From: Mobula hypostoma
Taxonomy: Eukaryota
DNA: 64,000 nt
Assembly: GCF_963921235.1 (NCBI RefSeq)
Contig: NC_086097.1
Span: 4,898,001 to 4,962,000 of the forward strand
Reading direction: 5' to 3'
Each line of letters opens with the position of its first letter. Positions within the stretch are counted from its first letter, which is position 1. The notes beneath the pieces were generated by a model, which worked only from the letters and a program-made list of their open reading frames with translations, was not told the DNA's origin and ran no database searches. Positions 7,060 through 63,602 of this stretch are shown here, one piece after another. A program made the position numbers and the translations under genes.

Positions 7060-7515
7060 TTATGAGTATTCTGGGAATTAAAGGCTTATCGTATGAGGAG
7101 CGATTGATAGCTCTGTGGCTTTATTCATTGGAATTTAGAAGACTGACAGGGGATCTTATTGAAACCTATCACATGTTGAAAAATGTGGCTAGATTGAATA
7201 TGGAAAGAATGTTTCCTATGCTGGGGAGTCCAGGACCAGAGGGCACAGCTTCACAATAGTGGGACATCCATTTAGAATGGAGATGAAAAGGAGCTTCTTT
7301 AGCCTGAGAGTGGTAAATCCGTGGACTTTATTGCCAGAGTTGGCTGTGAAGGCCAAGGTGGAGGTTAATAAATTCTTGATTAGTCAAGGCATGAAAGGAT
7401 ACAAGGAGAAGGCCGGAAAATAGGGTTGAGAGGGAAATAAATCAGCCATGATTGAACGGCAGAGCAGACTCGATGGGCTGAATGGCCTAATTCTATGCCT
7501 GTGTCTTATGGTTGA
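7060..7515 (+). mobile_element. CR1 LINE 3' fragment
   Basis: [27 protein letters not shown]1 3' UTR. Confidence 0.85.
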
Positions 7516-15490: not shown

Positions 15491-16363
15491 TTGGAGTCTC
15501 CAAGCCTCCCGGACGTCTACATCTGCACCAAGTGCATCGAGATGCAGCTCCTAAGGGACCGCGTTACGGAACTGGAGCTGCAGCTCGATGACCTTTGTCT
15601 GGTCAGGGAGAGCGAGGAGTTGATAGAGAGGAGTTGCAGGCAGGTGGTCACGCCGGGGACACGGGAGGCAGACAAGTGGGTCACGGTTAGGAGGGGGAAG
15701 GGGAAAAGTCAGGTGATGGGGAGTACCCCGGTGGCTGTGCCCCTTAACAACAGGTACTCCTGTTTGAGTACTGTTGGGGGGGACAGCTTACCCGGGGGAA
15801 GCGACAGTGGCCGTGCCTCCGGCACAGAGTCTGGCCCTGTAGCTCAGAAGGGTAGGGCAAGGAAGAGGAGGGCAGTTGTGATAGGGGACTCGATAGTAAG
15901 GGGGTCAGATAGGCGATTCTGTGGACGCAGTCCAGCGACCCGGATGGTAGTTTGCCTCCCTGGTGCCAGGGTCCGGGATATTTCCGATCGTGTCCAAGAT
16001 ATCCTGAAGTGGGAGGGTGAGGAGCCAGAGGTCGTGGTACATATAGGTACCAATGACATAGGTAGGAAAAGGGATGAGGTCCTGAAAGGAGAATATAGGG
16101 AGCTAGGAAGGGAGTTGAGAAAAAGGACCGCAAAGGTAGTAATCTCGGGATTACTGCCTGTGCCACGCGACAGTGAGAGTAGGAATGCGATGAGGTGAAG
16201 GATAAATGCGTGGCTGAGGGATTGGAGCAGGGGGCAGGGATTCAAGTTTTTGGATCATTGGGACCTCTTTTGGCGCAGGTGTGCCCTGTACAAAATGAAT
16301 CCTAGGGGGACCAATATCCTGGCAGGGAGATTAGCGAGGGCTACTGAGGTGACTTTAAACTAG
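15491..16363 (+). pseudogene. CR1 ORF1 (Cys motif, leucine zipper, SGNH/GDSL esterase)
   Basis: CTKC, LRDRVTELELQL, VIGDSIVRG, HIGTND; premature TGA at 16196; frame continues to TTA AAC TAG at 16355-16363. Confidence 0.9.
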
Positions 16364-16366
16364 AAT

Positions 16367-17016
16367 AGAAACATAGAAACATAGAAAATAGGTGCAGGAG
16401 TAGGCCATTCGGCCCTTCGAGCCTGCACCACCATTTATTATGATCATGGCTGATCATCCAACTCAGAACCCCGCCCCAGCCTTCCCTCCATACCCCCTGA
16501 CCCCCGTAGCCACAAGGGCCATATCTAACTCCCTCTTAAATATAGCCAATGAACTGGCCTCAACAGTTTCCTGTGGCAGAGAATTCCACAGATTCACCAC
16601 TCTCTGTGTGAAGAAGTTTTTCCTAATCTCGGTCCTAAAAGGCTTCCCCTCTATCCTCAAACTGTGGCCCCTCGTTCTGGACTTCCCCAACATCGGGAAC
16701 AATCTTCCTGCATCTAGCCTGTCCAATCCCTTTAGGATCTTATACGTTTCAATCAGATCCCCCCTCAATCTTCTAAATTCCAACTAGTACAAGCCCAGTT
16801 CATCCAGTCTTTCTTCATATGAAAGTCCTGCCATCCCAGGAATCAATCTGGTGAACCTTCTTTGTACTCCCTCTATGGCAAAGATGTCTTTCCTCAGATT
16901 AGGGGACCAAAACTGCACACAATACTCCAGGTGTGGTCTCACCAAGGCCTTGTACAACTGCAGTAGTACCTCCCTGCTCCTGTACTCGAATTCTCTCGCT
17001 ATAAATGCCAGCATAA
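16367..17016 (-). mobile_element. CR1 3' fragment inserted antisense at the host ORF1/ORF2 junction
   Basis: Reverse complement of ~19505-20145; (TTTCTATG)n tail; TAGAAT on both sides (16361-16366, 17017-17022). Confidence 0.93.
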
Positions 17017-17018
17017 TA

Positions 17019-20000
17019 GAATGGTTGGGGGGTGGGAATCAAATTAAAGAGGCTAGGCGTGAGGAGGTTAGTTCACAACAGGGGGATGGGAACCAGTGCA
17101 GAGAGACAGAGGGGTGTAAAGTGAGGGTAGAAGCAAAAAGTACTAAGGAGAAAAGTAAAAGTTGCAGGCCGACAAATCCAGGGCAAGCATTAAAAAGGGC
17201 CACTTTTCAACATAATTGTATAAGGGCTAAGAGAGTTGTAAAAGAGCGCCTGAAGGCTTTGTGCGTCAATGCAAGGAGCATTCGTAGTAAGGTGGATGAA
17301 TTGAAAGTGCAGATTGTTATTAATGATTATGATATAGTTGGGATCACAGAGACATGGCTCCAGGGTGACCAGGGATGGGAGCTCAACGTTCAGGGATATT
17401 CAATATTCAGGAGGGATAGACATGAAGGAAGGGGAGGTGGGGTGGCGTTGCTGGTTAAAGAAGAGATTAACGCAATAGAAAGGAAGGACATAAGCCGGGA
17501 AGATGTGGAATCGATATGGGTAGAGCTGCGTAACACTAAGGGGCAGAAGGCACTGGTGGGAGTTGTGTACAGGCCACCTAACAGTAGTAGTGAGGTCGGA
17601 GATGGTATTAAACAGGAAATTAAAAATGTGTGCAATAAAGGAACAGCAGTTATAATGGGTGACTTCAATCTACATGTAGATTGGGTAAACCAAATTGGTA
17701 AAGGTGCTGAGGAAGAGAATTTCTTGGAATGTATGCGGGATGGTTTTTTTAACCAACATGTCGAGGAACCAACTAGAGAGCAGGCTATTCTGGACTGGGT
17801 TTTGAGCAATGAGGAAGGGTTAATTAGCGATCTTGTCGTGAGAGGCCCCTTGTGTAAGAGTGACCATAATATGGTGGAATTCTTCATTAAGATGGAGAGT
17901 GACATAGTTAATTCAGAAACAAAGGTTCTGAACTTAAAGAGGGGTAACTTTGAAGGTATGAGACATGAATTAGCTGAGATAGACTGGCAAATGACACTTA
18001 AAGGATTGACGGTGGATATGCAATGGCAAGCATTTAAAGGTTGCATGGATGAACTACAACAATTGTTCATCCCAGTTTGGCAAAAGAATAAATCAAGGAA
18101 GGTAGTGCACCCGTGGCTGACAAGAGAAATTAGGGATAGTATCAATTCCAAAGAAGAAGCATACAAATTAGCCAGAGAAAGTGGCTCACCTGAGGACTGG
18201 GAGAAATTCAGAGTTCAGCAGAGGAGGACAAAGGGCTTAATTAGGAAGGGGAAAAAAGATTATGAGAGAAAACTGGCAGGGAACATAAAAACGGACTGTA
18301 AAAGCTTTTATAGATATGTAAAAAGGAAAAAACTGGTAAAGACAAATGTAGGTCCCCTGCAGACAGAAACAGGTGAATTGATTATGGGGAGCAAGGACAT
18401 GGCAGACCAATTGAATAATTACTTTGGTTCTGTCTTCACTAAGGAGGACATAAATAATCTTCTAGAAATAGTAAGGGACAGAGGGTCCCGTGAGATGGAG
18501 GAACTGAGCGAAATACATGTTAGTAGGGAAGTGGTGTTAGGTAAATTGAAGGGATTGAAGGCAGATAAATCCCCAGGGCCAGATGGTCTGCATCCTAGAG
18601 TGCTTAAGGAAGTAGCCCAAGAAATAGTGGATGCATTAGTGGTAATTTTTCAAAACTCGTTAGATTCTGGACTAGTTCCTGAGGATTGGAGGGTGGCTAA
18701 TGTAACTCCACTTTTTAAAAAGGGAGGGAGAGAGAAACCGGGGAATTATAGACCAGTTAGCCTGACGTCGGTGGTGGGGAAACTGCTGGAGTCAGTTATC
18801 AAGGATGTGATAACAGCACATTTGAAAAGCAGTGAGATGATTGGACAAAGTCAGCACGGATTTGTGAAAGGAAAATCATGTCTGACGAATCTCATAGAAT
18901 TTTTTGAGGATGTAACTAGTAGAGTGGATAGGGGAGAACCAGTGGATGTGGTATATTTGGATTTTCAAAAGGCTTTTGACAAGGTCCCACACAGGAGATT
19001 AGTGTGGAAACTTAAAGCACACGGTATTGGGGGTAAGGTATTGGTGTGGGTGGAGAATTGGTTAGCAGACAGGAAGCGAAGAGTGGGAATAAACGGGACC
19101 TTTTCAGAATGGCAGGCGGTGACTAGTGGGGTACCGCAAGGCTCAGTGCTGGGACCCCAGTTGTTTACAATATATATTAATGACTTGGATGAGGGAATTA
19201 AATGCAGCATCTCCAAGTTTGCGGATGACACGAAGCTGGGTGGCAGTGTTAGCTGTGAGGAGGATGCTAAGAGGATGCAGGGTGACTTGGATAGGTTGGG
19301 TGAGTGGGCAAATTCATGGCAGATGCAATTTAATGTGGATAAATGTGAAGTTATCCACTTTGGTGGCAAAAATAGGAAAACAGATTATTATCTGAATGGT
19401 GGCCGATTAGGAAAAGGGGAGATGCAACAAGACCTGGGTGTCATTATACACCAGTCATTGAAAGTGTGCATGCAGGTACAGCAGGCGGTGAAAAAGGTGA
19501 ATGGTATGCTGGCATTTATAGCGAGAGGATTCGAGTACAGGAGCAGGAAAGTACTACTGCAGTTGTACAAGGCCTTGGTGAGACCACACCCGGAGTATTG
19601 TGTGCAGTTTTGGTCCCCTAATCTGAGGAAAGACATCCTTGCCATAGAAGGAGTACAAAGAAGGTTCACCAGATTGATTCCTGGGATGGCAGGACTTTCA
19701 TATGAAGAAAGACTGGATGAACTGGGCTTGTATTCTTTGGAATTTAGAAGATTGATGGGGGATCTGATTGAAACGTATAAGATCCTAAAGGGATTGGACA
19801 GGCTAGATGCAGGAAGATTGTTCCCGATGTTGGGGAAGTCCAGAACGAGGGGCCACAGTTTGAGGATAGAGGGGAAGCCTTTTAGGACCGAGATTAGGAA
19901 AAACTTCTTCACACAGAGAGTGGTGAATCTGTGGAATTCTCTGCCACAGGAAACAATTGAGGCCAGTTCATTGGCTATATTTAAGAGGGAGTTAGATATG

Positions 20001-20057
20001 GTCCTTGTGGCTACGGGGGTCAGGGGGTATGGAGGGAAGGCTGGGGCAGGGTTCTGA
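17019..20057 (+). CDS. CR1 ORF2: AP-like endonuclease plus reverse transcriptase (uninterrupted frame)
   Basis: NARSI, GITETW, YRPP, MGDFN, SDH (APE); [38 protein letters not shown] (RT); about 1010 codons without a stop. Confidence 0.95.
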
Positions 20058-20959
20058 GTTGGATGATCAGCCATGATCATAATAAATGGCGGTGCAGGCT
20101 TGAAGGGCCGAATGACCTACTCCTGCACCTATTTTCTATGTTTTCTAAAGCCTCTTCTTGAGTCTGAGGAGTGTGATATTGTATCTTGAATCTGGTGCCA
20201 GTCCGTTGGTCAGGGATGACCCTAGAAGTTACGTCCTAGCTGTCTCTCTCATAGTCGACATGCAAGGCAATGGATATGGAGAACAAGCTGTTGCCCATGC
20301 AGCAGGCTGCCCCTCGTCATGCAGCCGGTGAATCCAAAGGAACAGTAGAGACCGATACAGTTTGGCACCAGCAGCATCACAGAAGTTGCCGGTCGGCGTT
20401 GAACACAAGGTCAAGCAGGACTGACGTGAGCTCCAAAGCCTTCTCCATGAGTGGGGTAGCAGAGGTTTCAGATCAGAGTGTTCCTTCTCCTAGATGAGCT
20501 GCCAACAATGACTGACCCACCCACTGGTCAGAATGAAATCTGAATTAAATAATTAATCATTGGGAAGCTTAGTCAGAAATCTTCAGTGAGAAATGCTTTA
20601 CCTGGCAAACCACAATGGACAAAATACTGACTGAAAATTATTTTCCATTATAATATGAGGCACCCAGATAATTTGCTCCGATCTCTTCAAAAGGGATGCA
20701 AACTGAAAGTATATCATGAAGAATTTGTTTATACAACTAAAATCTTTTCTCTGTGGAACTCCTGCAATGAGGCTGTCACTAAAGATTGATAAGTCAAATG
20801 ATAAATACTGATGATAATGCCAGGATGTACTGAATAGACTTTTGAAAATAGTAGACATCAGAATAGAACCTATTAACCAACTTTTCAGAATGCTGATTGT
20901 TGTGTCTGTGCACAACTACATATCAATTAAAAAAAAACACACGTGGGAGATGGCTTTAA

Positions 20960-23210
20960 TGGGTGTATTCACCTTGCAATAAGAGAGAGAGAGAGCAAGA
21001 GAACACGGTGCATGCGCACACAACAGGTCAATACATAGTGCTAAGGTGGGGCAGGGGTCATTGCTCTAAAACCATACATTACACGTCCTCCCCCTTTGGA
21101 ACCATGCAGCATAAACTGTTCATGTATAAAACATTCAATTTCCCTTTCATAATCCCATAGGTAAACACGCTTTCATAGTAACAGTCAATAACTAACTTCA
21201 CAGTTCTAAAGATTCAGTCTTTTGGGTGGTGCTCCGTTCCTTTCAGGATAGTGTCTCTGAACCTGTGTAGTGGCATTAAGTTTGGTCGGTGTCTTGTTGA
21301 CGTCACAGTTTCTGGTGTCACGTTGCTGTCAGTGACATCATCACTGAGAGGTAAGTCCGGAGATTGTAATGCGTCTGTCTTTTGGATGAAGTCGACTCAG
21401 ATGTGTTCTTCAGCTGAGCATCCAAATGACGTCTCCATATCTGATCTCTAACGTCCACTGTGTACGTCAGTGGTCCAGTTCTTCTAGTTATCCTACTGGG
21501 TGTCCACTTGTCTTCCTTGTAATCATAAACTGGAACTTCCTGTCCAATCTTGAAGGTCCCTGCTGCTTCACTTGGCAACTGGCTGGACTCTTCATTCTGC
21601 CCTTCCCTCTGTAGATCTGGTTTCAGGAGGTCTATGCGAGATCTCAGATTCCTGCTCATAAACAGTATTGCAGGTGTTTGATTTGTCATTGCATGCACAG
21701 AGTTCTGATACACAAAAACTAAGTTGTCTACCTTGTCCTGTAGAGAAATGTCCTCCTTGTCCATCATTTTAATGGTCTTCTTGAAGATTCGGGTAAACCT
21801 TCCAGCTAACCCATTTATTGCTGGGTGGTGAGAAGCTGACTTGTAATGTCTGATGCCATTTTTCTTCATGAACTGTTGGAATTCTTCGGATGAGTATTGT
21901 GGTCTGTTATCACTCACAACTTGTTCAAGTAAGCTGTGTCTGACAAAGATATCCTCAGAACGGAGACAGTCTTTGCTGATGTGGTTGACTTCATTGGTAT
22001 AAACTCTGGCCACTTCGAATGAGCATCCACAGCAATCAGGAACATGGAGTCCATGAATGGCCCAGCAAAGGCAATATATACTCTTTGCCATGTTGAAGAT
22101 GGCCACTGCTACAGGTGTAACAGTGCCTATAAGGGTACATTTGATTTTTTTTGACAGCCCAAACAACTTTTCTCCACGTCTTCCATCTGTCTATCTATTT
22201 CCGTTTCAAACACCTTCTGTGCCAGTCTCTGGTTAGTGCTACCATTTGGGCTGCAGTTGCCTGTTGATGCCACACTGAGAGTTTTTATTGAGTGCCAGTC
22301 CAGTTGGATCTTTTTCAACCATTCACATCCAAAAAGTGCTGGCCTTCCTCTTTTCAATGCATAAAGCTCTAACTGTTGTGTTTGGCCTCCAACGTCACAT
22401 TCACTTTCAGTTTGCTTTTGGGATGCACTTTTTCACCTGTGTAGGTCTTTAGAATCACTGAGGTATTTTCTATTGGTATCTTAGAAATCAATCTGTTGTA
22501 ATCAGCCTCTGAAATTATGGACAAAGCTGACATTGTTTACCGTGCCATTTTCAGCTTTACACCAGACAAATCTATTGTGATCCAGATGATTTTGTGATCT
22601 GCTTCAGTTATACTATGCAGTCTGAGGCATGAAAATTCACCCTTGTCAGACTCTGTGTTGTCTGATTCTGTTTTACATTCAGTAACTTTATGCATTTACT
22701 TAGTTTTGTGTTTGAAACTTTTCACTCGGTTGTGCTTTTTGCCTGCCTTGTGAATGTACATCTGACATTGTCTGTAATTTTTATTTTGAACTAACAGTCA
22801 TTTTGCATCATGAGAGGATCTGCCGCATCAATAACATTTTTGGCTTTTTGCACCATTCATGGACATTTTGTGCATTTCACATTCTAACCTTTTCTGTAGT
22901 ACTGCTTCATCCTTTGCTGCAGTCGCTATCAATATTGCAATGGGCAATGGCAGTTCCAAGGCAAGCTCTCATTCAGATAGCAGCCTCTTTTGAGGGCTTT
23001 GACTACGTACGTCACATATAAGCCTGTACCTTAATGCATCAGAAAGTCCATCTCTAAAATCAAGAACTGGGAAAGTTTGCGCAGCTCTGCAATGTATTCA
23101 GGAATGCTTTGACTGGTTCTTTTTGTAAAATCTAAATCTCTCAGCTATTACCAGTGGCTTAGGGCTCAAGTGATTTTGTAAAATTGTAATAATTTCATCT
23201 AACGCCTTCA
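20960..23210 (-). mobile_element. Degenerate Gypsy LTR retrotransposon (gag/protease/integrase remnants, PPT, partial 3' LTR)
   Basis: VVSDNRPQYSSEEF..HPAINGLAGRF integrase in ORF 21318-22166; GRPALFGCEWL; purine tract ~21085-21096 before TGTAAT. Confidence 0.82.
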
Positions 23211-26579: not shown

Positions 26580-28820
26580 TCAAGTTCAATCTCCTTTACC
26601 AGAGCATTGGAGAGGGATAGGAGCGGACCAGTTAGGAAAACGTTTAGTTGGAGTAGGGGGAAATATGAAGCTATCAGGCAGGACCTTGGAAGTATAAATT
26701 GGGAGCAGATGTTCTCAGGGAAATGTATGGCAGAAATATGGCAGATGTTCAGGGGATATTTGCATGGCGTTCTGCATGGGTACATTCCAATGAGACAGGG
26801 AAAGGATGCTAGGGTACAGGAACCATGGTGTAAAAGGCTGTTGAAAATCTAGTCAAGAAGAAAGGAAAAGCTTAGGAAAGGTTAAAAAAACTAGGTAATG
26901 ACAGAGATCTAGAGGATTATAAGTCTAGCAGAAGGGAGCTTAAGAATGAAATTAGGAGGGCCAGAAAGGGCCATGGGAAGGTCGTGGTGAGCTGTATTAA
27001 GGAAAACCCCAAGGCATTCTACAAGTATGTGAAGAGAAAGAGGATAAGATGTGAGAGAATAGAACCATCAAGTGTGACAGTGGAAAAGTGTGTATGGAAC
27101 CGGAAGAGCTAGCAGGGGTACCTAGTGAATGATTTGCTTCCGTATTCACTACAGAAAAGGACTTTGACTATTGTGGAGATGACTTTCAGTGGACTGAAAA
27201 GCTTGAGCATATAAACATTATGAAAGAGGAAGTGCTGGAGCTTTTAGAAAGTATCAAGTTGGATAAGTCACTGGGACTGGGCAAGATAGACCCTAGGCTA
27301 CTGTGGGAGGCGAGGGAGGAGATTGCTGAGTCTCTGGCAATGATCTTTGCATCATCAATGGAGACAGGAGAGGTTCCGGAGGATTGGAGGGTTGCAAATG
27401 TTGTTCCCTTCTTCCAGAAAGGGAGTAGAGATAGCCCTGGAAATTATAGACCAATGTATTTTAATTCAGTGGTTTGTAATTTGATGGAGAAGATCTTGAG
27501 AGGCAAGATTTATAAACATTTAGAGAGGCATAATATGATTAGGAATAGTCAGCATGGCTTTGTCAAAGGCAGGTTGAGCCTTACAAGCCTGATTGAATTT
27601 TTTGAGGATGTGACTAAATCATTGATGAAAGTACACCAGTAGATGTAGTGTATATGGATTTCAGCAAGGCATTTGATAAGGTACCCCATGCAAGGCTTAT
27701 TGAGAAAGTAAGGAGGTGTGGGATCCAAGGGAAACTTGTTATGTGGATCCAAAACTGGCTTGCTCACAGAAGGCAAAGAGTGGTTTAGATGGGCCCTATT
27801 CTGCATGGAGGTTGGTGACCAGTGGTGTGCCTCAGGGATCTGTTCTGGGACCTCTACTCTTCATGATTTTAGTAAATGACTTGGATGAGGAAGTGGAGGG
27901 ATGGGTGAGTAAGTTTGCTAATGACACAAAGGTTGGAGGTGTCATGGATAGTGTGGAGGGCTGTCAGAGGTTACAGTGGGACATCGATAGAATGCAAAAC
28001 TGGGCTGAGAGGTGGCTCATGGAGTTCAACCCAGATAAGTGTGAGGTGGTTTATTTTGGTAGGTCAAACATGATAGCAGAATTTAGTGTAAATGGCAAGA
28101 CTCTTGACAGTGTGGAGGATCAGAGGGATCTTGGGGTCTGAGTCTATAGGACACTCAAAGCTGCTGCACAGTTTGACTCTGTGGTTAAGAAGGCATATGG
28201 TGTCTTCATCAACCATGGGACTGAGTTCAAAAGCTGAGAGGTAATGTTACAGCTATATAGGACCCTGGTCAGACCCCACTTGGAGTACTGTGATCAGTTC
28301 TGGTCACCTCACTAAAGGAAGGATGTGGAAACAATAGAAAAGGTGCAGAGGAGATTTACAAGGACGTTGCCTGGATTGGGGAGCATACCTTATAAAAACA
28401 GTTTGCGTGAACTTGGCCTTTTCTCCTTGGAGCAACGGAGGATGAGAGGTGACCTAATTGAGGTATATAAGATGATGAGAGGCATTTATCATGTGGATAG
28501 TCAGAGGCTTTTTCCCAGGTCTGAAATGGCTAACACGAGAGGGCACAGTTTTAAGGTGTTTGGAAGTAGGGTCAGAGGAGATGTCAGGGGTAAGATTTTT
28601 ATGCAGAGAATGGTGAATGCATGGAATGGGCTGCCAGCGACGGTGGTGGAGGATACAATAGGGTCTTTTAAGAGTCTCTTTAATAGGTACAGAGATCTTA
28701 GAAAAATAGAGAGCTATGTGTAACCCTAGGTAATTTCTAAAGTAAGTACATGTTTGGCACAGCATTGTGGGCTGAAGGGCCTGTATTGTGCTGCAGGTTT
28801 TCTATGTTTCTATGTTTCTA
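26580..28820 (+). mobile_element. CR1 LINE (second family), 5'-truncated, disrupted ORF2
   Basis: [33 protein letters not shown]; tail gggctgaagggcctgtattgtgctgcaggttttctatgtttctatg. Confidence 0.92.
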
Positions 28821-30499: not shown

Positions 30500-31905
30500 A
30501 AATGAATCAGACCCTTTGGCCCATCTAGTCCATGCCAAACCATTAAAACTGCCTACCCCAGTTGATCTGTGCCAGGACCAAAGCTCTCCATACCCCTATC
30601 ATCCGTGTACCTATTCAAATTGGAATTTTGTATACCTATATCAAATCACCTTTTAATTTTCTATGTTCTAAGGAACAAAGTCTTAACTTATTCAATCTCT
30701 CCTTATAACTCAGGTCCTCCAGACCTGGCAACATCCTTGTAAATTTTCTCTGTACTCTTTGGATGTTATTTACATCTTTCTATTCTTCTGCTTTTACCCC
30801 ATAACCTTTGATGACTAATGAAGAACCTATCAACCTTTGCTTTGAGGCCTTTCAACATTTGATAGGTTTCAATGAGGTCACCTCCTCATTCTTTTAACTT
30901 CCAGTGAGTAGAGGCCCAGACCATCAAACATTTCTTATATAATAAACCTTTCAATCTGGAATCATATGTAATTGGCAGGAGGAGAAGATGGCGGCACGCC
31001 GCGCATACGTAGCTCTCCGGTGAAAAATGATATTGTATCTGTTAAATAGAGGTCGTGGACAATTCTGATTTGATGGAGAATGGACATGAAAGCACAGAGG
31101 AACATCTGGAGAAATTTCTGAAACGCCCGTTCGCGGCTGTCGTTACTGTGTGGTCGGGAATCTTTCGGAGAGTAGGCCTCAAAATCCCCGGCCTTGCCTG
31201 CTTTTGGCAACCGAGAAGGAGGTCGAATCATTCGGACAGAGATGGTGCTCAGTACTCGGTGTCAGAGAGCTGATCAGAGCTCGAAGTTTTCGGATGACTC
31301 AGAGTGGGATTGTGGTCGGCATGGCAGGGAGAGTTTTTCTTCCTTCTCCCATCTGCATGAGATGTGGGACATTTGAGAAACTTCAAACTTTACTGTGCTC
31401 ATGGACTTCTTCATCAAGTTATGGTATTGTTACACTGCTTGTAACTATATGTTATAATTATGTGGTTTTATTAGTTCTTTCAGTCTTGGTTTGTCCTGTG
31501 TTTTGTGATATTACGCCGGAGGAAATAATGTATCATTTCTTAATGCATGCATTACTAAATGACAATAAAAGAGGACTGTGTATCTTCATAACCATATTTG
31601 TGAACCTCCTTTGAACCCCCTCCAATGTCAACACATTCTTTCTTAGATCAGGGTCCTAAAACTGCTCACAATACTTCAAGTGAGGCCTCTCTAATGCTTT
31701 ATAAAGCCTCAATATTCTATCCTGGCTTTTATATTTTAGTCCTCTTGAAATGATTGCAATTGACTTCCCCAACACAGACTCAACCTGCAAGTTAACCTTC
31801 AGAAAATCCTGCACTAAGACTCTCTTTGCACTTGACAATTTTTGTATTTTCTCTCCATTTAGAAAATAGTCTACGCTTTTATTTCTTCTACCAAAGTGCA
31901 TGACT
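30500..31905 (-). mobile_element. Degenerate CR1 3' fragments, interrupted at ~30976-31590
   Basis: MHFGRRNK..LYKALERPHLKYC in ORF 31656-31901. Confidence 0.75.
30976..31590 (+). mobile_element. ~600-bp non-coding retroposon inserted in CR1
   Basis: Begins near aagatggcgg, ends aaatgacaataaaa like the Rex tail at ~5070; host CR1 resumes on both sides. Confidence 0.55.
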
Positions 31906-32661: not shown

Positions 32662-33323
32662 GGGGGAAAGCTAATGGCATGCTGGCCTTCATAACAAGGG
32701 GAATTGAGTATAAGAGCAAAGAGGTCCTTCTGCAGCTGTACAGGGCCCTGGTGAGACCACACCTGGAGTACTGTGTGCAGTTTTGGTCTCCAAATTTGAG
32801 GAAGGACATTCTTGCTATTGAGGGAGTACAGCGTAGGTTCACAAGGTTAATTCCCAGGATGGTGGGACTGTCATATGTTGAAAGATTGGAGCGACTGGGC
32901 TTGTATACTCTGGAATTTAGAAGGCTAAGAGGGGATCTTATTGAAACACATAAGATTATTAAGGGATTGGACACACTGGAGGCAGGAAGCATGTTCTTGC
33001 TGATGGGTGAGTCCAGAACCAGAGGCCACAGTTTAAGAATAAGGGGTAGGCCATTTAGAACGGAGTTGAGGAAAAACTTTTTCACCCAGAGAGTGGTGGA
33101 TATACGGAATGCTCTGCCCCAGAAGGCTGTGGAGGCCAAGTCTTCGGATGCTTTCAAGAAAGAGATGGATAAAGCTCTTAAAGATAGCAGAATCAAAGGT
33201 TATGGGGATAAGGCAGGAACTGGATACTGATTGTGGATGATCAGCCATGATCACAGTGAATGGCGGTGCTGGCTCAAAGGGCCGAAAGGCCTACTCCTGC
33301 ACCTATTGTCTATTGTCTATTGA
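32662..33323 (+). mobile_element. CR1 LINE 3' fragment
   Basis: Open 183-aa RT C-terminus; (CTATTGT)n tail. Confidence 0.92.
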
Positions 33324-33435
33324 AATCCATTCAGAAATCAGATGGCAGAGGCGAAGATGCTGATTCTGAATCATTGACTGTGTGTCTCCAGGCTCCTTTA
33401 CCTCCTCCCTGATGGTAACAATGAGAAGAGGTGCT

Positions 33436-34425
33436 TTGGCAGGATAGATTAGAAGACTCATCTAGGGAGGCTATTTGGGTGGAATTGAGGAATGGGAAAG
33501 GTGTAGTAACGCTTATAGATGTGTATTATAGACCACCTAAAGGGGAGCGAGAATTGGAGGAGCAAATTTGTAAGGAGGTAGCAGATGTTTGTAGTAAGCA
33601 CAAGGTTGTGATTGTGGGAGATTTTAATTTTCCACACATAGACTGGGAAGCCCATTCTGGAAAAGGGCTGGATGGTTTGGAGTTTGTAAAATGTGTGCAA
33701 GATAGTTTTTTGCTGCAATACACAGAGGTACCAACTAGAGAAGGGGCAGTGTTGGATCTCCTGTTAGAGAATGAGATAGGTCAGGTGACGGAGGTATGTG
33801 TTGGGGAGCACAGTTTCAATATAATTATGGAGAAGGATGGGACTGGACCCAGGGCTCAGATTTTTTATTGGAAAAAGGCTAACTTTGAGGAGATGCGAAA
33901 GGATTTAGAAGGAATGGATTGGGACAATTTGTTTTATGGGAAGGATGTAATAGAGAAATAGAGGTCATTTAAAGGTGAAATTTTGAGGGTACGGAATCTT
34001 TATGTTCCTGTTAGGTTGAGAGGAAAGGTTAAAAGTTTGAGAGAGCCATGGTTTTCAAGGGATATTGGAAACTTGATTCGGAAAAAGAGAGAGATCTACA
34101 ATAAATATAGGCAGCTTGGAGTATATGAGATGCTCAAGGAAGATAAAGAATGTAAAAAGAATCTTAAGACTTTTCCACTTTTGTATTCCTTAAAAGCACC
34201 AGTACTTCCACTTCTTTAATCACTATACTTTCCATAACTCCCCTTCTTGTTTCCCTTACCTTACACAATTCAATATCCTTCTCCTTAGTGAATACCGAAG
34301 AAAAGAAATTGTTCAAAATCTCCCCCATCTTATATGGCTCCGCACATAGCCATCCACTCTGATTCTCTAAGGGACCAGTTTTATTCCTCACTATCCTTCT
34401 GCTATTAATATAACTGTAGAAACCC
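33436..34425 (+). mobile_element. CR1 ORF2 fragment (endonuclease), distal part inverted (~34170-34425)
   Basis: YRPP and VGDFNFP on +; GFYSYINSRR..LNNFFSSVFTKE on -. Confidence 0.85.
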
Positions 34426-34426
34426 A

Positions 34427-34517
34427 TATCAAAGTTGCTGGTGAACGCAGCAGGCCAGGCAGCATCGCTAGGAAAAGGTACAGTTGACGTTTCGGGCCGA
34501 GACCCTTCGTCAGGACT
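34427..34517 (-). mobile_element. Penelope-like terminus with hammerhead motif (34482-34517)
   Basis: Minus strand AGTC-CTGACGA-AGGGTCTCGGCCC-GAAAC-GTC-AACT. Confidence 0.72.
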
Positions 34518-35465
34518 TCCACCTCCTCTAGAATGGTAATAATGAGAAGAGGGGATATCCTGGATGGCAAAGGTCCTTAATGCCTTCTTGAGATACTCCC
34601 TTCTGAAGATATCCCTAGAGCCCACTTGGGGTATCCCAAACTCACACTGCAGCTGGGTATTCCAGGTGACAGGCAAATGGTAATGATATTCTCCTGATGA
34701 AGGGTCTCAGCCCAAAATGTCAATCATTTGTTCATTTCCATGAATGCCTCCAGACCTGTAGAATTCCTCGAACACTTTGTGTGTGTTCCTCTGGACTTCT
34801 AGCACCGGCACAATCTCTTATGTATATTCTTTGCGATGCTACAGAAACGTAATGGTTAGTGCAAAGCTATTCCATCCCAGGGCGTCAGAGTTTGGAATTC
34901 AATTCTGATGCCTTCTGTAAGAAGTTTGTACGTTCTTCCCCTGACCACTTCAGTTTTCTGTGGGTTCTCTGGTTTCCTCCCACGGGATAGTAGGTTAATT
35001 GGACATTGTAAGTTGTCATACACAGCACAAGGCATATATAGCACATACATGATTGTAGTAAATATGCAGTCACACAAAAAATATATATAATATGTACGTC
35101 CCTAAGTCCATAGCTGTTGTTGGCAAGAACAAACCCACAGCAGTCTGCAAATAAGCACAATCCAGCTTGTCGAACACCACTAGGGGCAGCACATTGCCTC
35201 TGAAGTCACCTCTCCTGGGCAGCTGTGACAGATGACACCATGGCATGAGGCCTAGTCTGGCCTGCAACTAACACCATACAGCTCCTCCGTGTAGGTTCCA
35301 CCTCCAAACCAGTGAACCAGATTTGCAGCATGCACTTTACCAATGTCCAACAGGGTCCTAAAGGTCACAAGAAAAATGTCTAAGGCAATCACTGAATCAG
35401 AATCAGGTTTATTATCACTGGCATGTGATGTGATATTTGTTAATTTAGCAGCAGCAGTTCAGTGC

Positions 35466-36486
35466 AGTGACTAGTGGGGTACCGCAAGGCTCCGTGCTGG
35501 GACCCCAGTTGTTTACAATATATATCAAAGACTTAGACGAGGGAATTAAATGCAGCATCTCCAAGTTCGCAGATGACATGAAGCTGGGTGGCAGTGTTAG
35601 CTGTGAGGAGGATGCTAAGAGGATGCAGGGTGACTTGGATAGGTTATTTGAGTGGGCAAATTCATGGCAGATGCAATTTAATATGAATAAATGTGAGGTT
35701 ATGCACTTTGGTGGCAAGAACAGGAAAACAAATTATTATCTGAATGGTGGCCGATTAAGAAAAGGGGAGGTGCAACGAGACTTGGGTGTCATTATACACC
35801 AGTCATTGAAAGTGGGCATGCAGGTACAGCAGGCGGTGAAAAAGGCGAATGGTATGCTGGCATTCATAGCAAGAGGATTCGAGTACAGGAGCAGGGAGGT
35901 ACTACTGCAGTTGTACAAGGCCTTGGTGAGACCACACCTGGAATATTGTGTGCAGTTTTGGTCCCCTAATCTGAGGAAGGACATTCTTGCCATAGAGAGA
36001 GTACAAAGAAGGTTTACCAGATTGATTCCTGGGATGGCAAGACTTTCATATGATGAAAGACTAGATCGACTAAGCTTATACTCTCTGGAATTTAGAGGAT
36101 TAAGGGGGGATCTGACTGAAACGTATAAAATTCTAAAGGGATTGGACAGACTAGATGTAAGAAGATTGTTCAGAACGAAGGGTCACAGTTTGAGGATAAA
36201 GGGGAAGACTTTTAGGACCGAGACGAGGAAAAACTTCTTCACACAGAGAGTGGTGAATCTGTGGAATTCTCTGCCACAGGAAACAGTTGAGGCTAGTTCA
36301 TTGGCTATACTTAAGAGGGAGTTAGATATGGCCCTTATGGCTAACGGGATCAGGGGGTATGGAGGGAAGGCTGGTACAGGGCTCTGAGTTGGATGATCAG
36401 CCATGATCATACTGAATGGTGGTGCAGGCTCGAAAGGCCGAATGGCCTTCTCCTGCACCTATTTTCTATGTTTCTATGTTTCTATA
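35466..36486 (+). mobile_element. CR1 LINE 3' fragment, same family as the 15.5-20.1 kb copy
   Basis: 306-aa open RT C-terminus with FADD; (TTTCTATG)n tail. Confidence 0.94.
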
Positions 36487-38184
36487 ATCTAGCAGAGAGA
36501 GAAAAACATAATAATAAATAAAACAAAAATAATAACAAATAAATAAATAAATACATAAATTACAGTATACATATATTGAATAGATTTTTAAAAACGTGCA
36601 AAAACAGAAATACTATATATTAACAAAAGTGAGGTAGTGTCTAAGGGTTCAACGTCCATTTAGGAATCGGATGACAGAGGGGAAGAAGCTGGTCCTGAAT
36701 CACTGAGTGTGTGCCTTCAGGCTTCTGTACCTCCTACCTGATGGTAACAGTGAGAAAAGGGCATACCCTGGGTGCTGGAGGTCTTTAATAATGGACACTG
36801 CCTTTCTAAGACACTGGCTGTTAGACTGCACACCACGTTCGCTCACCGACTCCAATGCCTCTCTGTAACAGGCAGCAACAGGGTCTGCACCAAGGCAACT
36901 TCTCCAGCTTTCCACTATCGAGTAACTCACTGAAGGGGTAGACCTGGAGTACTCGAAGTTCTTAATGTCCAACACTGCCTTGTAATCATAAAAAACGTTT
37001 AAAAAAGACAATAACAACTTTGGCTGGCCCTGTAGAGGCCGCTGTGTCTGAGCACTCCACCATCTTACAGGATTAAGGTGAGGCATACCGATCGACCTGG
37101 GTCCAGTGTTTTCACTGGCTGCATTACATGCCCTACCCACAGGCAGAGATGTCATTTGTCAGCAGTCCCACCTCTGGTCCTATCCACTTGGCAGTGAACC
37201 CTGCCTTTCCAGGCAGCTCCCTCACCATGACTTGGTTAGCCGGCTGTGGCAGGACTATCTGTTTTCCCTCTGGGTCAGTCCAGTCAGCAATAACTTGCTG
37301 TTCTCTTTCCCCTCCCTATTCTGGCATCTTCTCTCTTCCTTTCCTGTCCTGAAGAAGGGTCTTGGCCCGAACCGTCGCCTGCTTGTTATTTTCCATAGAT
37401 GCTGCCTGGCGTGCTGAGCACCTCCAGCAGTTTGTGTGAGTTGCTCTGGATTCCCAGCACCTGCAGACTTTGTCGTGTTTATTATAAGTTTCTGCTGTCT
37501 GGCTTGGTCCCTCGAAGTTTTATCCTGGTTACAGTAGCCCTTCATAGTCCACTAATGTAGCTTTAATCGACACGGTTTGTGTAGTGGACTCTAATTCACA
37601 TATGAAGTGTTTCTAGTGTTTCTGGACTCTCCCTTTTTGTTGCTATTTTTGGGCGACTTGGAGTCGGGGTGCCCTGCAGATAGGGAACACTGTGCTGAAC
37701 TGAAATAAACCTTTCGATTTTGTGTTTTATGTTCTGTTTTTTCACTCTTTTTTTTGTTGCTGTTTGCGCACTTTGTTTTTTTTTGCACGTAGAGGGCATG
37801 GGGTGGGGGGGTGCAGGTTGATGCTTTTTCATTGAATGGGTTCCACGATTCTTCTTTGTTTTGTGACTGTCCGTGGGAAGACGAACCTCAGGGTTGTACA
37901 TGGCATACATACTTTGATCAAAAATGTACTTTGAATACTTTGATACACTTTCTCTACACTTCCAGTTTCTCTGGTCTCCTGTTCTTCTGTGATCTACCTG
38001 CTCATCCTCTTTCTGCTATGCCTTTACTTCAATCCCTGTTACCTCTGCAAGCATCTGCCCCACTTCTAACACTTCTAGCTTGAGTTTGACTCCCACCCCG
38101 TGGGGTCTCCTGACATGATATACACACTTTGTCCTATGTCTGTGTGTTGCTCATGTTTGCTGACTATAACTTATTGATATCACC

Positions 38185-39070
38185 TACCTACAGGAAAGAT
38201 GTAAATAAGGTTGAAAGAGTACAGAAAAAATTTACAAGGACGTTGCCAGGTTTGGAGGACTGAGTTTAAGGGAAGATTGAATAGGTTAGGAGTTTATTCC
38301 CAAAATGTCGAAGATTGAGAGAAGATTTGATAGAAAATTACGAGGGGTATAGATAGGATAAATGCAAGTAGGCTTTTTCCACTGTGTTTGGTTGGGACTA
38401 CAACCAAAGATCATGGGTTAAGGGTAAAAGCTGAAATGTTTAAGGGGAGCATGAGGGGGAACTTCTTCTCTCAGAGGGTGGTGAGAGTGTGGAATGAGCT
38501 GCCAGTGCAAGTGGTGCCTGTGAGCTCAATTTCAATGCTTAAGGAAGGTTGGGATGAGTACATGGATGGTAGGGATATGGAGGACTATGGTCCTGGTGCA
38601 GGTCATTGGGTGGGAGTAAGCAGCTTAAATGGTTTCAGCATTGTCTAGGTGATCTGAAGGGCCTGTTTCTGTGCTGTACTTTTATATGACAGCATAATCT
38701 GCCCGATGACTAAGTTAATTGTAGTAGCTGCCTTAGCTTAGTGTCTCGGTCTCTCGGACAGTACTGCATACCACACACGAGGCTGCTTAACAAGGTAAGA
38801 GCCCATGGTATTACAGGAAAGGTACTAGCATGCATAGAAGATTGGCTGATTGGCAGGAGGCAAAAAATGTGAATAAAGGTGCCCTCTTCTGGCTGGTTGT
38901 GGGTGACTAGTAGTGTTCCGCAGTGGTCGGTGTTGGGACCGCTTCTTTTTACATTACATGTTGATGATTTGGACGACAGGATTGATGGCTTTGTGGCCAA
39001 GTTTGCTGACTTTACGAAGATACTGTAGGTAGGGGGGCAGGTAGTGTTGAGGAAGCAGGGAGTATGCAGA
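38185..39070 (+). mobile_element. Two degenerate CR1 fragments (~38185-38690, ~38765-39070)
   Basis: NFFSQRVVRVWNELP; gtgactagtagtgttccgcag RT segment. Confidence 0.8.
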
Positions 39071-39559
39071 AGGGTACCCTGGATGTGCCCCTATCAAATG
39101 GCCCAATTTACATCACAGTTCAGCAGGAAGCACAAATAACTTGCCACTAGCAAGAAATTGTACAATATTGTCAGTAAATGGCTTTCCAAAAAAGTTAGCC
39201 AATAAATTTAAAAATAATCTCACTTTAAATCTTTTAATATGCATAATTGTAACAGAGGGTGGTATTGTAAATCACTCTTTTGGTGAGCCTCATTTTAATC
39301 TCTTTATATATCAATCTTTTGTCCATGTCTCAAAGAAATGCTCACTGTTTAAATGGTAATTATGGTAAGTAACAAATGATTTTGAAATGATTAGATGATC
39401 CTGATTTGTGTTAACTTAAAAACTCTACGTGCTGTTCAGATTTATCCAGTAGAGGGCAAGAGATCCCAATTTTTAGTATGGTCATTCAGAAAATCACATC
39501 AAGATCTTTTTACATTTACACAGTCCTGCCAAAAACGACCACCTCTTACTCAAAGTCAC

Positions 39560-40330
39560 TGTCCAAGGAGCTGATTATTGACTTCAGGAGGAGGAAACCG
39601 GAGGTCCATGAGCCAGTCCGCATTGGGGGGATCAGAGGTGGACAGGGTCAGTAATTTTAAATTCCTCGGTGCTATTATTTCTGAGGACCTGTCTTGGGTC
39701 CAGCACATAAGTGCTTACTTGGGCCTAATCTCCCAGTGGAACATAGGTCATTGATGATTTCCCATCACCGTTGTCCTAAGTCAATGGTATGGTTGGAGTT
39801 CATCAATGTTTCTGTAATCCATTGTACCCACTGTACAGGGATTTGGTCTATACAGCTTCACCAGAGCCCTCTCGGTTGGCCTTACCCATTTTCACCACTC
39901 ACGATGGGGACGTTGGGTTACAAACTTGCCCTTGGATGGAAAATCCTACAAAAAGTAGTGGATGCGGCCCAGTCCATCATGGATAAAACACTGCCCATGA
40001 CTGAACACATCTACCCGAAGCCTTTTTTCAGGAAAGCAACATCCATCATCAGGGACCCCCCACTCAGGACATGCTCTCTTCTCACTGTTGCCTTTATAGA
40101 GAAGGTACAGAAGTCTCAGGACTCACACCAGCAGGTTCTGAAACAGTTATCAGCCCTCAACCATCAGATTCTTGAACCAGAGGAGTTAACTCCATTTAAC
40201 TTCACTCACCCCATCACTGAACTGTTTCCAAAACCTATGGAGTCACTTTCAAGGACTCTATATTTCATGTTCTGGATATTTATTCTTATTAATTAAATCA
40301 TTCATTCATTATTGTTATTATTATTATTTA
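39560..40330 (+). mobile_element. Degenerate Rex1/Babar-like 3' fragment
   Basis: KELIIDFRR and LQKVVDAAQSI..RKATSIIRDP motifs. Confidence 0.65.
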
Positions 40331-40369
40331 TTTATTTTTTCATTTGCCCAGTTTATTGTCTTTTATTGT

Positions 40370-42365
40370 CATAAGGCTTGGGATCAGTGGAACCTTGGCT
40401 GTTTGGATAAAAAATTGGCTTACAGGAAGAAAGCAGAGGGTAGTAGTGGAAGGAAAGTATTCTGCTTGGAGGTCAGTGACTAGTGGAGTGCTGCAAGGAT
40501 CTGTTCTGGGACCCCTGCTCTTTGTGATTTTTATAAATGACCTGGATGAAGAGGTGGGTGAGTAAGTTTGCGGATGACATGAATACTGGAGGAGTTGTGG
40601 ATGGAGCTGTAGGTTGTTGAAGGTTACAAGAGGATATAGACAGGATGCAGAGTTGGGCAGAAAAGTGGCAGATGGAGCTCAATCCAGATAAGTGTGAGGT
40701 GATGCATTTTGGAAGGACAAATCAGAAGGCTGAGTACAGGGTTAATGGTCAGTTACTTAAGAGTGTGGATGAACAGAGGGACCTTGGGGTTCAAATCCAT
40801 ACATCCCTCAAGGTCACTGCACAGGTTGATAGGATAGTTAAGAGGGCTTATGGGATGTTAGGCTTCATTAATAAGAGGAATAGATAGAGTGGATAGCCAG
40901 CGCCTCTTCCCCAGGGCACCACTGCTCAATACAAGAGGGCATGGCTTTAAGGTAAGGGGAGGGAAGTTCAAGGGGGATAGTAGAGGAAGGTTTTTTACTC
41001 AGAGAGCGGTTGATGCGTGGAATGCACTGCCTGAGTCAGTGGTGGAGGCAGATACACTAGTGAAGTTTAAGAGACTACTAGACAGGTATATGGAGGAATC
41101 TAAGGTGGGGGCTTATATGGGAGGCAGGGTTTGAGGGTTGGCACAACATTGTGGGCCGAAGGGCCTGTACTGTGCTGTACTATTCTATGTTTCTATATTT
41201 CTATTAATAAGGGGATTGAGTTCAAGAGTAGAGAGGTCATATTGCAACTCTACAAATCTCTGGTGAGACCACACTTAGAGTATTGTGTTCTTTTCTGGTC
41301 ACCTCATTATAGGAAGGGTGTGGAAGCTATGGAGAGGGTGCAGAGGAGATTTACCAGGATGTTGCCTGGATTGGAAAACAAGTCTTACGAGGCAAGGTTA
41401 GCAGAGCTGGGACTTTTCTCTTTGGAGCGTAGAAGGATGAGAGGGGATTTGATAGAGGTCTACAAGATTATGAGAGGCATAGATAGGGTGGATAGCCAGT
41501 ACCTGTTTCCCAGGGCATGAATAGCAAACACCAGAGGGCATATGTACAAAGTTAAGGGAGGGAAGTTTAGGGGAGACATTGTCATAGTCATAGTCATACT
41601 TTATTGATCCCGAGGGAAATTGGGTTTCGTTACAGTTGCACCAACTAAGAACTTACGATCATGGGTAAGTTTTTTACACAGAGGGTTGTGGGAGCCTGGA
41701 ATGACTTGCCAGGGATGGTGGTGGAGGCTAAAACATTAGAGGTATTTAAGAGTCTCTTGGACAGGCATGTGGATATTGGGTTATTGGGGTTATTGGGGTC
41801 CCCCTACCTTCTGTCCAAGACCTCTTTCAGAGTCGATGCCTCCAGAAGACACAGTACATCATCAAAGACCCCTCACACCCTCTCCATGAACTGTTTGTTC
41901 TTCTGCCATCAGGCAAACGTTACAGGAGCATCAAAACTAAAACCACAAGGCTACTAAACAGCTTCCTCCCACAGGCAGTCAGACTGCTAAATAGCTGCTC
42001 CACCTGACTCTGCTTTGGACACTTTTATCTTGCACTGGACACTTATAACTGATTTAACTGACATGTGGCTGTTGTGTTTTACTATTTATTGTTATGTTTA
42101 TTATTTAGTGTTGCGTTTGTTATGTTATGATTGCACTGCCCCTGAGGAACGCTGTCTCATTCTGCCCTGCAGAGCTGATGTATGGTTAGAATGAAAATAA
42201 AGTTTTTTGAATCTTTAAATCTTGAATCTTGAATGGATGAAAGAAAAATAGAGGGTTACGGGGTAGTGTTGGTTGAGTAAATTTTCTTAGGAATATGTGG
42301 GTCGGCACAACATTGAAGGTCGAAGGGCCTGTACTGTGCTGTAGTATTCTAGTGTCTAGTGTCTA
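40370..42365 (+). mobile_element. CR1 3' part carrying three nested insertions (CR1 40876-41202; Rex tail ~41581-41660 on -; Rex 3' ~41775-42233)
   Basis: Host RT resumes after each insert; ATTAATAAG duplicated at 40867-40875 and 41203-41211. Confidence 0.82.
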
Positions 42366-53609: not shown

Positions 53610-53985
53610 CATATTGGAACACAGAAACAGGCCCTTCGACCCACAATGCCATGCCAAACCAATTAAATTAGTAATCAAATGGCTAACGAAACTAACTTCT
53701 TCTGCCTACACAATGTCCATATCCCTCCATTTCCCTCACATTCACGTACCTATGTAAACGTCGCTTAAAAATCTCCAATGTATCTGCCTCTACCACCACC
53801 CCAGGCAGCACATTCTAGTCACCCACCACTCTCTCTGTATAAACTTGCCCCTCACTTCTCCTTTCAAATTGCCCCCTCTCAAGTTAAATTCATGCCCTCA
53901 GACATTTGACATTTCAGCACTGGGAAAAAGATACTGTCTGTCTATGCTATCTATGCCTCTCATAATCTTATGAACCTCTATCAGA
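53610..53985 (-). mobile_element. Degenerate CR1 3' fragment
   Basis: Reverse-complement CR1 RT end and gggtcgaagggcctgtttctgt tail. Confidence 0.75.
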
Positions 53986-54049
53986 TGATGGGAACAGTGC
54001 TTCACTATTAACCAACAACTAAGAAGATGGAACTGAGAACAAAAACTGG

Positions 54050-54355
54050 GCACTACGGGAGTGTAGTGGTTAGTGTGACGCCACTACAACTCAAAGCGTT
54101 CCAGAGATTGGAGTTCAATTCCAACACTGTTCTGTAAGGAGACTCTGTACGTCCACCTCACGGAATGCCGGGGTTTTCCCCGGGCACTCCAGCTTCCTCC
54201 CAGAGTCCAAAGCCATACAGGTAGATTAATTGGCCATTGTAAATTATCCCATGATTATGATAGGGTTAAATCAGGGATGTTGGGGTTTCTGGGGCAACGT
54301 AGCTCAAAGGACTGAAAGGCCCAACTCCATGCTGTATTGCCAAATAAATAAATGA
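54050..54355 (+). mobile_element. V-SINE/HE1-like SINE
   Basis: A-box-like gtgtagtggttag, B box gagttcaattcc, V core, AATAAA tail. Confidence 0.78.
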
Positions 54356-54477
54356 ATAACATTAACATTAATTCAAAATCTTCAAACTCCTGTGATACTG
54401 CAGTATGTCTGCTTAAATTATGCCTGTAGATAGTAATTTAGAGATTGAAAACACTAAATTATTATCTGTCCACGATC

Positions 54478-63355: not shown

Positions 63356-63602
63356 AATGTGCATGTGTAGACAACAGATCATACATATTGTTGGGGGGTT
63401 GTGCTGCTTGCTGGAAAAGAAATAGATCCATATGTCACCCTTCCTCCCCCTTTAGGTTATAAAACTGTGTATGCACTTTTTCCCATAGATGCTGCATGGC
63501 TTGCTGAGTTCCTCCAGCGTTTTGTGTGTGTACAAAACATTCAATTTCCCTTTCATAAACTCGTATTCCAAATAAACATATTCTCACAATAACAGCACAA
63601 CA

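Follow-up and report, generated by a model that had tools for sequence, protein, structure and literature searches.

We describe here an arrangement at the end of open reading frame 1 (ORF1) of a CR1 long interspersed nuclear element (LINE) from Mobula hypostoma, in which a slippery heptamer, T_TTA_AAC, directly abuts the ORF1 stop codon and is followed a few nucleotides (nt) later by a run of G, with the second frame (ORF2), encoding the endonuclease and the reverse transcriptase, lying at -1. The element occupies positions 15492-20147 (+ strand) of a stretch of 64,000 nt (assembly GCF_963921235.1, contig NC_086097.1, positions 4,898,001 to 4,962,000, forward strand), which we call the window and whose numbering is used throughout unless a locus is named. 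Based on comparisons among copies and lineages, we consider it probable that -1 ribosomal frameshifting at U_UUA_AAC yields an ORF1-ORF2 fusion protein. The anatomy of the junction and its deep conservation are read directly from the sequences, and from them we infer the slip, the fusion protein and the parts played by the stop codon and the G-run.

A slippery heptamer at the ORF1/ORF2 junction

ORF1 of the window element ends ACT TTA AAC TAG (16352-16363), which places the heptamer (16354-16360, +) in the X_XXY_YYZ register of ORF1 and the stop codon TAG (16361-16363, +) immediately behind it. Two codons 5' of the heptamer a TGA (16345-16347, +) shuts the -1 frame, which is that of ORF2. In the window the junction is split by a nested antisense CR1 piece (16367-17016, - strand), lying between two copies of the target-site duplication TAGAAT (16361-16366 and 17017-17022). 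When the insert and one TAGAAT are taken out, the ORF2 frame reads TTT AAA CTA GAA TGG TTG GGG GGT GGG (F K L E W L G G G), and the G-rich tract GGTTGGGGGGTGGG (17023-17036, +) follows the heptamer, its G6 run (17027-17032, +) starting 11 nt past the last heptamer base in the uninterrupted element.

The -1 frame then runs through a linker of about 80-81 codons that contains no ATG (17019-17261, +) into ORF2 proper (17262-20057, +), which comprises an apurinic/apyrimidinic (AP) endonuclease (Exo_endo_phos, 6e-12) and a reverse transcriptase (RVT_1, 4.5e-33) and stops at a TGA (20055-20057); in the list of open frames of the window a single frame continues through 20057. The first ATG of this frame, at 17655, is within the sequence ..VIMGDFN... 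An earlier note on this DNA, made from the letters alone, had described each of these features, namely the ORF1 terminus, the register of the heptamer, the TGA that shuts the -1 frame, the rejoined reading, the open linker of about 80 codons (the endonuclease starts near 17262), the G-rich tract and the late ATG, and had proposed from them that the element makes an ORF1-ORF2 fusion by frameshifting. Its description proved accurate, and the proposal itself appears supported, since every sequence test that it put forward came out favourably in the window family.

The junction in other copies and sister families of the same genome

In the same genome we counted at least 556 candidate ORF1 3'-end copies; candidate esterase domains number 29,326. 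Fifty-two copies were anchored, and seven more loci lacked an anchor. TTTAAAC is present in 47 of the 52 anchored copies (L035, among the five misses, was mis-anchored) and TTTAAACTAG in 45, and the full 27-nt string TTTAAACTAGAATGGTTGGGGGGTGGG occurs uninterrupted in 31; the junction that the earlier note had reconstructed by removing the insert is thus a natural sequence. The window copy is dead and is interrupted exactly at the junction, for which reason the arrangement might be put down to chance or to an artefact of one decayed copy. Against this, the uninterrupted junction is found in 45 of the 52 anchored copies and recurs in lineages whose flanks cannot be aligned. Since a canonical heptamer in register is expected at about 1 in 700 codon positions (our estimate), the open window spans about 5 codons and the motif recurs, chance is set aside here as a practically negligible explanation.

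The -1 frame stays open for 220 codons in 25 of the 49 junction-bearing copies with that much downstream sequence. Of these 25, 17 have their first Met at codon 215, four have it at codon 206 and the remaining four at a sporadic earlier site. Codons 206 and 215 both fall inside the endonuclease, and since starts there would lose most of that domain, translation of ORF2 in the window family must begin by some route other than an AUG. Close to the stop there is a single ATG (TAGAATGG); it belongs to the third frame, where in the window family it encodes MVGGWESN followed by a stop. This ATG stands 2 nt past the ORF1 stop, in a good context, and opens an ORF of 8 codons (17021-17047, +; L004:1781-1807); it is found in the window family only, with ATT in the sister family C, and may capture reinitiating ribosomes or may be meaningless.

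Three sister families of the genome (L015 and L030; L052 and L055, with the 20 copies L061-L080; and L081) are 71-88% identical to the window's in the 3' end of ORF1 and only 36-40% identical to it in the N-terminal 330 residues of ORF2. All of them retain TTTAAAC-TAG in register, ORF2 at -1 and an ATG-less linker; the conservation that the earlier note had proposed to look for, that of TTTAAACTAG, of the -1 phase and of the lack of an AUG, holds family-wide and in all three sister families. UUA is preceded in the L052 family by AGT (Ser) and not ACT (Thr), with the U retained, and there the stop that shuts the -1 frame upstream is a different one, a TAA lying five codons 5' of the heptamer. 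A TGA in the linker of L052 and L055 was considered as a real stop and rejected as CpG decay (CGA in 15 of 21, TGA in 4, CAA in 1, AGA in 1), and an ATG in the L052 linker reads GTG in the other 20 copies. Since one ORF1-plus-junction module is common to all, the sister families do not count as independent evidence.

Between the window family and L015 (L015:1770-1830) similarity stops about 35 nt past the heptamer, where AAAGAG is followed by GCTAGG in the former and by ACTAGA in the latter. This suggests that ORF1 modules have been exchanged by recombination just past the junction, onto very different ORF2s, a reading that fits with passages of Metcalfe and Casane (PMC4120745) on the reticulate evolution of ORF1.

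A search of the same genome with PF13472 found only the same abundant family among the 150 hits scored of the 29,326 candidates, and a DNA search with another fragment of the window led to a subfamily close to family C, with ORF1 reached in two of the six copies taken. In contigs from four of 24 sequencing runs (not known to be RNA), neither the heptamer nor the stop carries any of the listed variants or joints. The length of the G-run varies among copies from G5 to G7, with an extra G in a minority of contigs in two of these runs (L004:1786), and one run contig skips 1800-2049.

The end of ORF1 in distant relatives

An intact 311-residue ORF1 protein (ORF1p) was used as a query and gave 170 homologues; from the 120 listed, 49 were taken by coverage (about 95% or more) and not by their ends. 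Forty-seven of these 49 near-full-length homologues end in Leu-Asn, the exceptions being one that ends ..TIN and one truncated model, and those with Leu-Asn come from rays, skates, sharks, sawfish, coelacanth, frogs, turtles, a lizard, a snake and unnamed contigs. The residues before Leu-Asn vary (..ATEVTLN, ..ALREGLN, ..VEESLN, ..LEECLN, ..IKRALN, ..GIGNLN), and in an alignment of 20 sequences with a mean column identity of 39% both L306 and N307 are invariant.

At the DNA level, metagenome contigs were scanned with the ORF1p alignment, giving 80 loci that were all evaluated alike. ORF1 ends with an in-frame TTTAAAC plus stop at 11 of the 80 (L087, L090-L094, L097, L103, L108, L121 and L160), and six decayed loci keep a recognisable motif (L088, L095, L102, L111, L114 and L136). 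The contigs of 23 loci, L111 among them, stop before the ORF1 C-terminus, and the other 46 end otherwise: five of the decayed loci with a motif, L096, and about 40 motif-less loci. Most of the motif-less loci are 23-32% identical, have no downstream endonuclease and are probably bacterial lipases or contigs that are too short. A search of genome contigs found only four bacterial GDSL loci, and a search of viral contigs found none.

An endonuclease follows downstream on the same strand at 16 loci, of which 12 have the motif or its remains, one has an alternative heptamer and three have neither (L106, L126 and L143). L087, L088, L090, L091, L092, L097 and L103 each have a -1 frame that continues without a stop from the heptamer into the endonuclease, which in L087, L090 and L091 is not preceded by an ATG, and in seven lineages the -1 frame opens just 1-5 codons 5' of the heptamer. 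In L096, ORF1 ends CAG GGA AAC TAG, and the heptamer is G_GGA_AAC, a canonical slippery heptamer in the same register and with the stop adjoining; GGG begins 11 nt past it, no stop breaks the -1 frame on its way into the endonuclease, and ORF1 ends GN, not LN. Two of the three loci with neither (L126:49-2903 and L143:1270-2730) have an esterase-like ORF and an AP endonuclease that share one frame, separated by 100-210 codons and a single in-frame stop, and lack a slippery heptamer; they may represent a single-ORF or readthrough lineage, or decayed copies.

Two conserved islands at the junction

Fifteen lineages, including 13 metagenome lineages whose ORF1 proteins are 28-37% identical to the ray-like query, were aligned without gaps on the heptamer over 100 columns, which start 45 nt upstream of it and end 48 nt downstream. 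Agreement in at least 13 of the 15 lineages is seen at 16 of the 100 columns, and 14 of these form two islands, the other two being isolated. The first island, at positions 0-8, is TTTAAAC TA (14-15 of 15 lineages, with the second stop letter in 13 of 15), and the second, at positions 17-21, is GGGGG (14-15 of 15); the 45 nt upstream contain one isolated conserved column only. The heptamer is T_TTA_AAC in 14 lineages and G_GGA_AAC in the 15th. The stop is in a fixed position in all 15, and its identity varies (TAG, TGA, TAA).

Wobble bases account for three of the conserved positions. U is invariably the last base of the codon before UUA (CAT, TAT, TCT, GCT, ACT, AGT), the residue being T, S, H, Y or A; the Leu codon is always UUA and the Asn codon always AAC. 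In the ORF2 frame, the G-run begins on the third base of a variable codon (TTG, AAG, CAG, AGG, TCG, CTG), and the Gly codon that comes after it is always GGG. As read from this alignment, the pattern is what would be expected of a frameshift cassette, not of a protein C-terminal motif or of a binding site specific for UUUAAAC.

The conserved letters could instead serve the Leu-Asn C-terminus of ORF1p, or a packaging or template-switch site in RNA or DNA, with ORF2 made by internal non-AUG initiation. Such a role would agree with the Leu-Asn end of 47 of the 49 ORF1p homologues, and with an ORF1-plus-junction module that is common to families with very different ORF2s and has recombination nearby. 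A protein constraint, however, would permit six Leu and two Asn codons and leave the preceding wobble base free, and L096 ends GN. Moreover, the register to both frames is fixed, and the opening of the -1 frame 1-5 codons upstream of the heptamer in seven lineages fits a shift window; we regard a role outside translation as very unlikely.

Evidence against frameshifting and the case for reinitiation

Several observations weigh against frameshifting. The earlier note had proposed to fold the downstream region, and no stable or conserved hairpin emerged: in 13 lineages the 120 nt past the heptamer fold no better than shuffles (z -1.59 to +1.79) and share no hairpin, and a search for a C-rich partner of the G-run, covering 160 nt downstream and 80 nt upstream, found none in 12 of 16 lineages. 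Since neither a structure above shuffles nor a partner for the G-run was seen, a classical stem-loop or pseudoknot stimulator, expected 5-9 nt past the heptamer, appears to be missing, as far as nested folding shows, with a linear G5 run instead. No protease is encoded that would free ORF2p from the fusion. In L088, L092, L103, L121 and L160 an ATG in the ORF2 frame stands 3-5 codons past the heptamer, and the ORF1p of the first four of these loci is nearest to a snake match; an ATG ahead of the endonuclease, which the earlier note had named as evidence against its proposal, is absent from the window family and present in several reptile-like lineages. Passages in reviews describe the initiation of L1 ORF2 as AUG-independent and that of SART1 as stop-start coupled, and L1 is an example of a LINE whose ORF2 needs no frameshift. 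Finally, the lineages compared are homologous and not independent inventions, and the argument from them is one of purifying selection at sites that would otherwise be expected to be saturated.

Some of these observations speak for termination-reinitiation, in which a retained ribosomal subunit would restart a few nt past the stop in the ORF2 frame, at an AUG, a near-cognate or any codon, and the conserved letters would be termination and reinitiation context. The early ATGs of the five loci, the missing hairpin and the precedents of L1 and SART1 are all in keeping with it, as is a stop whose position is invariant across lineages. What it leaves unexplained is the slippery heptamer, including the wobble U of a variable codon, and the swap in L096 to another canonical slippery heptamer. 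The third codon past the heptamer, which is ATG in three lineages, is elsewhere TGG, TTG, TTA, AGG, GTG, TCG, GAC, GAA or AAG, no conserved upstream motif was seen in the 45 nt before the heptamer, with their one conserved column, and the window family has no ORF2-frame ATG near the stop. Reinitiation is in our judgement possible but rather unlikely.

The region 3' of the heptamer is purine-rich. A G-quadruplex was considered as a general feature and dropped, several lineages having only one G-run. The reptile-like contigs have a short hairpin about 27-30 nt past the heptamer, with both arms changed among them (CCAGGC..GCCTGG in L092, 1263-1288; CCAGGCT..AGCCTGG in L108; GGCTC..GAGCC in L097; L103 is also in this group), and it is absent from the ray families. 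This hairpin seems too distant to be a classical stimulator.

Proposed mechanism

In the frameshifting that we favour, the cassette would measure about 30 nt and consist of U_UUA_AAC, the adjoining ORF1 stop, a spacer of 7 nt past the stop and a run of G5-6. The majority of ribosomes would terminate and release ORF1p, and a minority would slip one base back, at a low rate. In this slip tRNA-Leu would re-pair with UUU in place of UUA and tRNA-Asn with AAA in place of AAC, after which CUA or CUG, both of them Leu codons, would replace the stop in the A site. Reading would then continue through the 80-codon linker into the endonuclease and the reverse transcriptase, and the predicted product is ...TLN-LEWLGGGN....

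The slip would most probably occur on a ribosome that has paused with its A site at the stop, when tRNA-Asn occupies AAC in the P site and tRNA-Leu UUA in the E site. Such an E/P-site slip is proposed because the stop always abuts the heptamer and the G-run is fixed at 10 nt from the heptamer and lies 7 nt past the A-site codon, the usual spacing of a frameshift stimulator. The G-run itself would act as linear RNA, since no pairing partner was found for it in 12 of 16 lineages, and would do so via the ribosome or a bound protein.

More tentatively, vertebrate CR1 elements may have had one and the same 'shifty stop' cassette since before the split between cartilaginous and bony lineages, with an E/P-site slip and a linear G-run that is read by a trans-acting factor, RNA structure playing no part. 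We put this forward as a speculation that has some chance of being right. The candidate factor would be the element's own ORF1p, acting via its Cys-rich N-terminal motif, and only RNA already covered by ORF1p would then yield the fusion, so that cis-preference would be part of translation itself.

Comparison with known systems

UUUAAAC is the frameshift site of coronaviruses. The CR1 junction resembles that of the coronaviruses and the gag-pol junction of retroviruses and long terminal repeat (LTR) elements in its in-register X_XXY_YYZ, in a polymerase ORF that lies at -1 without a start of its own and, if the fusion is made, in an excess of the upstream protein over it. It differs from gag-pol in that CR1 is a non-LTR element with no predicted stem-loop or pseudoknot, a stop that abuts the heptamer, a linear G5 run and no protease. 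Frameshifting stimulated by proteins is known from the C-rich motif of arterivirus nsp2TF and from cardiovirus 2A; here the analogy is of spacing only, the CR1 motif being G-rich.

Passages of a review (Atkins 2016, PMC5009743) report that many animal LTR elements have pol at -1 with classical heptamers and that some frameshift stimulators lie 12-15 nt 3' and act with trans-acting factors; the non-LTR cases in these passages are only HeT-A gag, TART (given as unknown) and L1 (given as novel initiation). A -1 shift is stated, in passages of the literature, for the Dictyostelium LINEs TRE5-A and TRE3-A, and because of this precedent the idea of frameshifting in a LINE is not new. The TRE elements belong to a different LINE clade and a different host from CR1, and the likeness noted here is the stated -1 shift.

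With L1 and SART1 the window family shares a bicistronic LINE RNA and an ORF2 expression that is tied to the end of ORF1, and according to review passages the AUG of L1 is dispensable. In those passages L1 has a spacer between its ORFs and SART1 an overlapping AUG (UAAUG), and a slippery heptamer is mentioned for neither. In contrast, the window family lacks an AUG, and no feature is more conserved than the heptamer. The AUG-independent reinitiation of L1 and the UAAUG coupling of SART1 are the only well-studied answers, as far as these passages go, to the question of how a LINE translates its ORF2.

A review of 2013 on non-LTR protein biogenesis (PMC3894237) calls ORF2 initiation an open question and nowhere uses the word 'frameshift', which is likewise absent from a 2026 survey of the CR1 group (PMC13343379). 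Our literature search found no description of frameshifting at the CR1 ORF1/ORF2 junction; a remark in the early CR1 papers (Haas 1997, Kajikawa 1997, Kapitonov and Jurka 2003) or in the SART1 paper is possible. The slippery cassette at the CR1 junction and its conservation across vertebrates were not found in print, and the comparative evidence is new.

Should the proposal hold, frameshifting in the style of gag-pol would reach non-LTR elements of vertebrates, an ORF1-ORF2 fusion would be the predicted form of the active reverse transcriptase, and a structure-free stimulator would join the known types. CR1 would become, after L1, the second major LINE group with a mechanistic account of how its reverse transcriptase is produced, and the proposal would provide a simple annotation rule for CR1 ORF2, which is now cut to the first Met or left partial. 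Passages of the survey of the CR1 group attribute to these elements 22-34% of shark and ray genomes and make them the main retrotransposon in most vertebrates (PMC13343379). The cassette is compact, sharply defined and easily mutated, which makes the question of ORF2 translation directly testable in CR1.

The window copy and its surroundings

The element at 15492-20147 is one CR1 LINE copy, and it is dead, being truncated at the 5' end, interrupted by a TGA in ORF1, shortened by 15 nt and split at the junction by the antisense CR1. Its ORF1 remnant (15492-16363, +) is of the type with a coiled coil and an SGNH/GDSL esterase (Pfam Lipase_GDSL_2, E 3e-13). It begins 49 nt inside ORF1, as judged by alignment to the full copy L035, the in-frame TGA is at 16196-16198, and the deletion of 15 nt is near 16295 (267 nt, against 282 nt in other copies). 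The nested insert is itself a 5'-truncated CR1 piece that holds the 3' end of ORF2, the 3' untranslated region and an 8-nt repeat tail; in reverse complement it is 97% identical to 19505-20147, the 3' end of the same element, and by tblastn 96% identical to ORF2 residues 830-1012.

Short 8-nt 3' repeats are a defining feature of CR1. Behind ORF2 the element has a 3' untranslated region and a short tail of ATTTTCT/ATGTTTTCT-type repeats (20058-20147, +), which reads ..ATTTTCTATGTTTTCT at 20131-20146, and the nested copy terminates in ATGTTTCT repeats; there is no poly-A. With an endonuclease and reverse transcriptase ORF2, an esterase ORF1 and an 8-nt-repeat 3' end all present, the element can be filed on sequence grounds as a canonical CR1 LINE. 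This filing was chosen because the esterase ORF1 is the only ORF1 type of vertebrate CR1 and L2 and chondrichthyan L2s lack an ORF1, according to passages of the CR1-group survey (PMC13343379), and because the closest named ORF1p homologue is a devil-ray protein (95% identity).

CR1 fragments of several lineages, with 23-94% protein identity to the element's ORFs, crowd the window at 1-1069, 7068-7417, 26583-28699, 30624-31904 (-), 32667-34457, 35455-36384, 38180-41762, 45856-47240 (-), 49795-50589 (-), 53704-54982 and 63598-63999 (-). A second ORF1 fragment (46504-47240, minus strand) is directly joined to the 3' part of an ORF2. At 21318-22432 (-) open frames resemble, by eye, the integrase core of an LTR retroelement (..HSKWPEFIPMKSTTSAKTV.., ..NRPQYSSEEFQQFMKKNGIRHYKSASHHPAINGLAGRF..).

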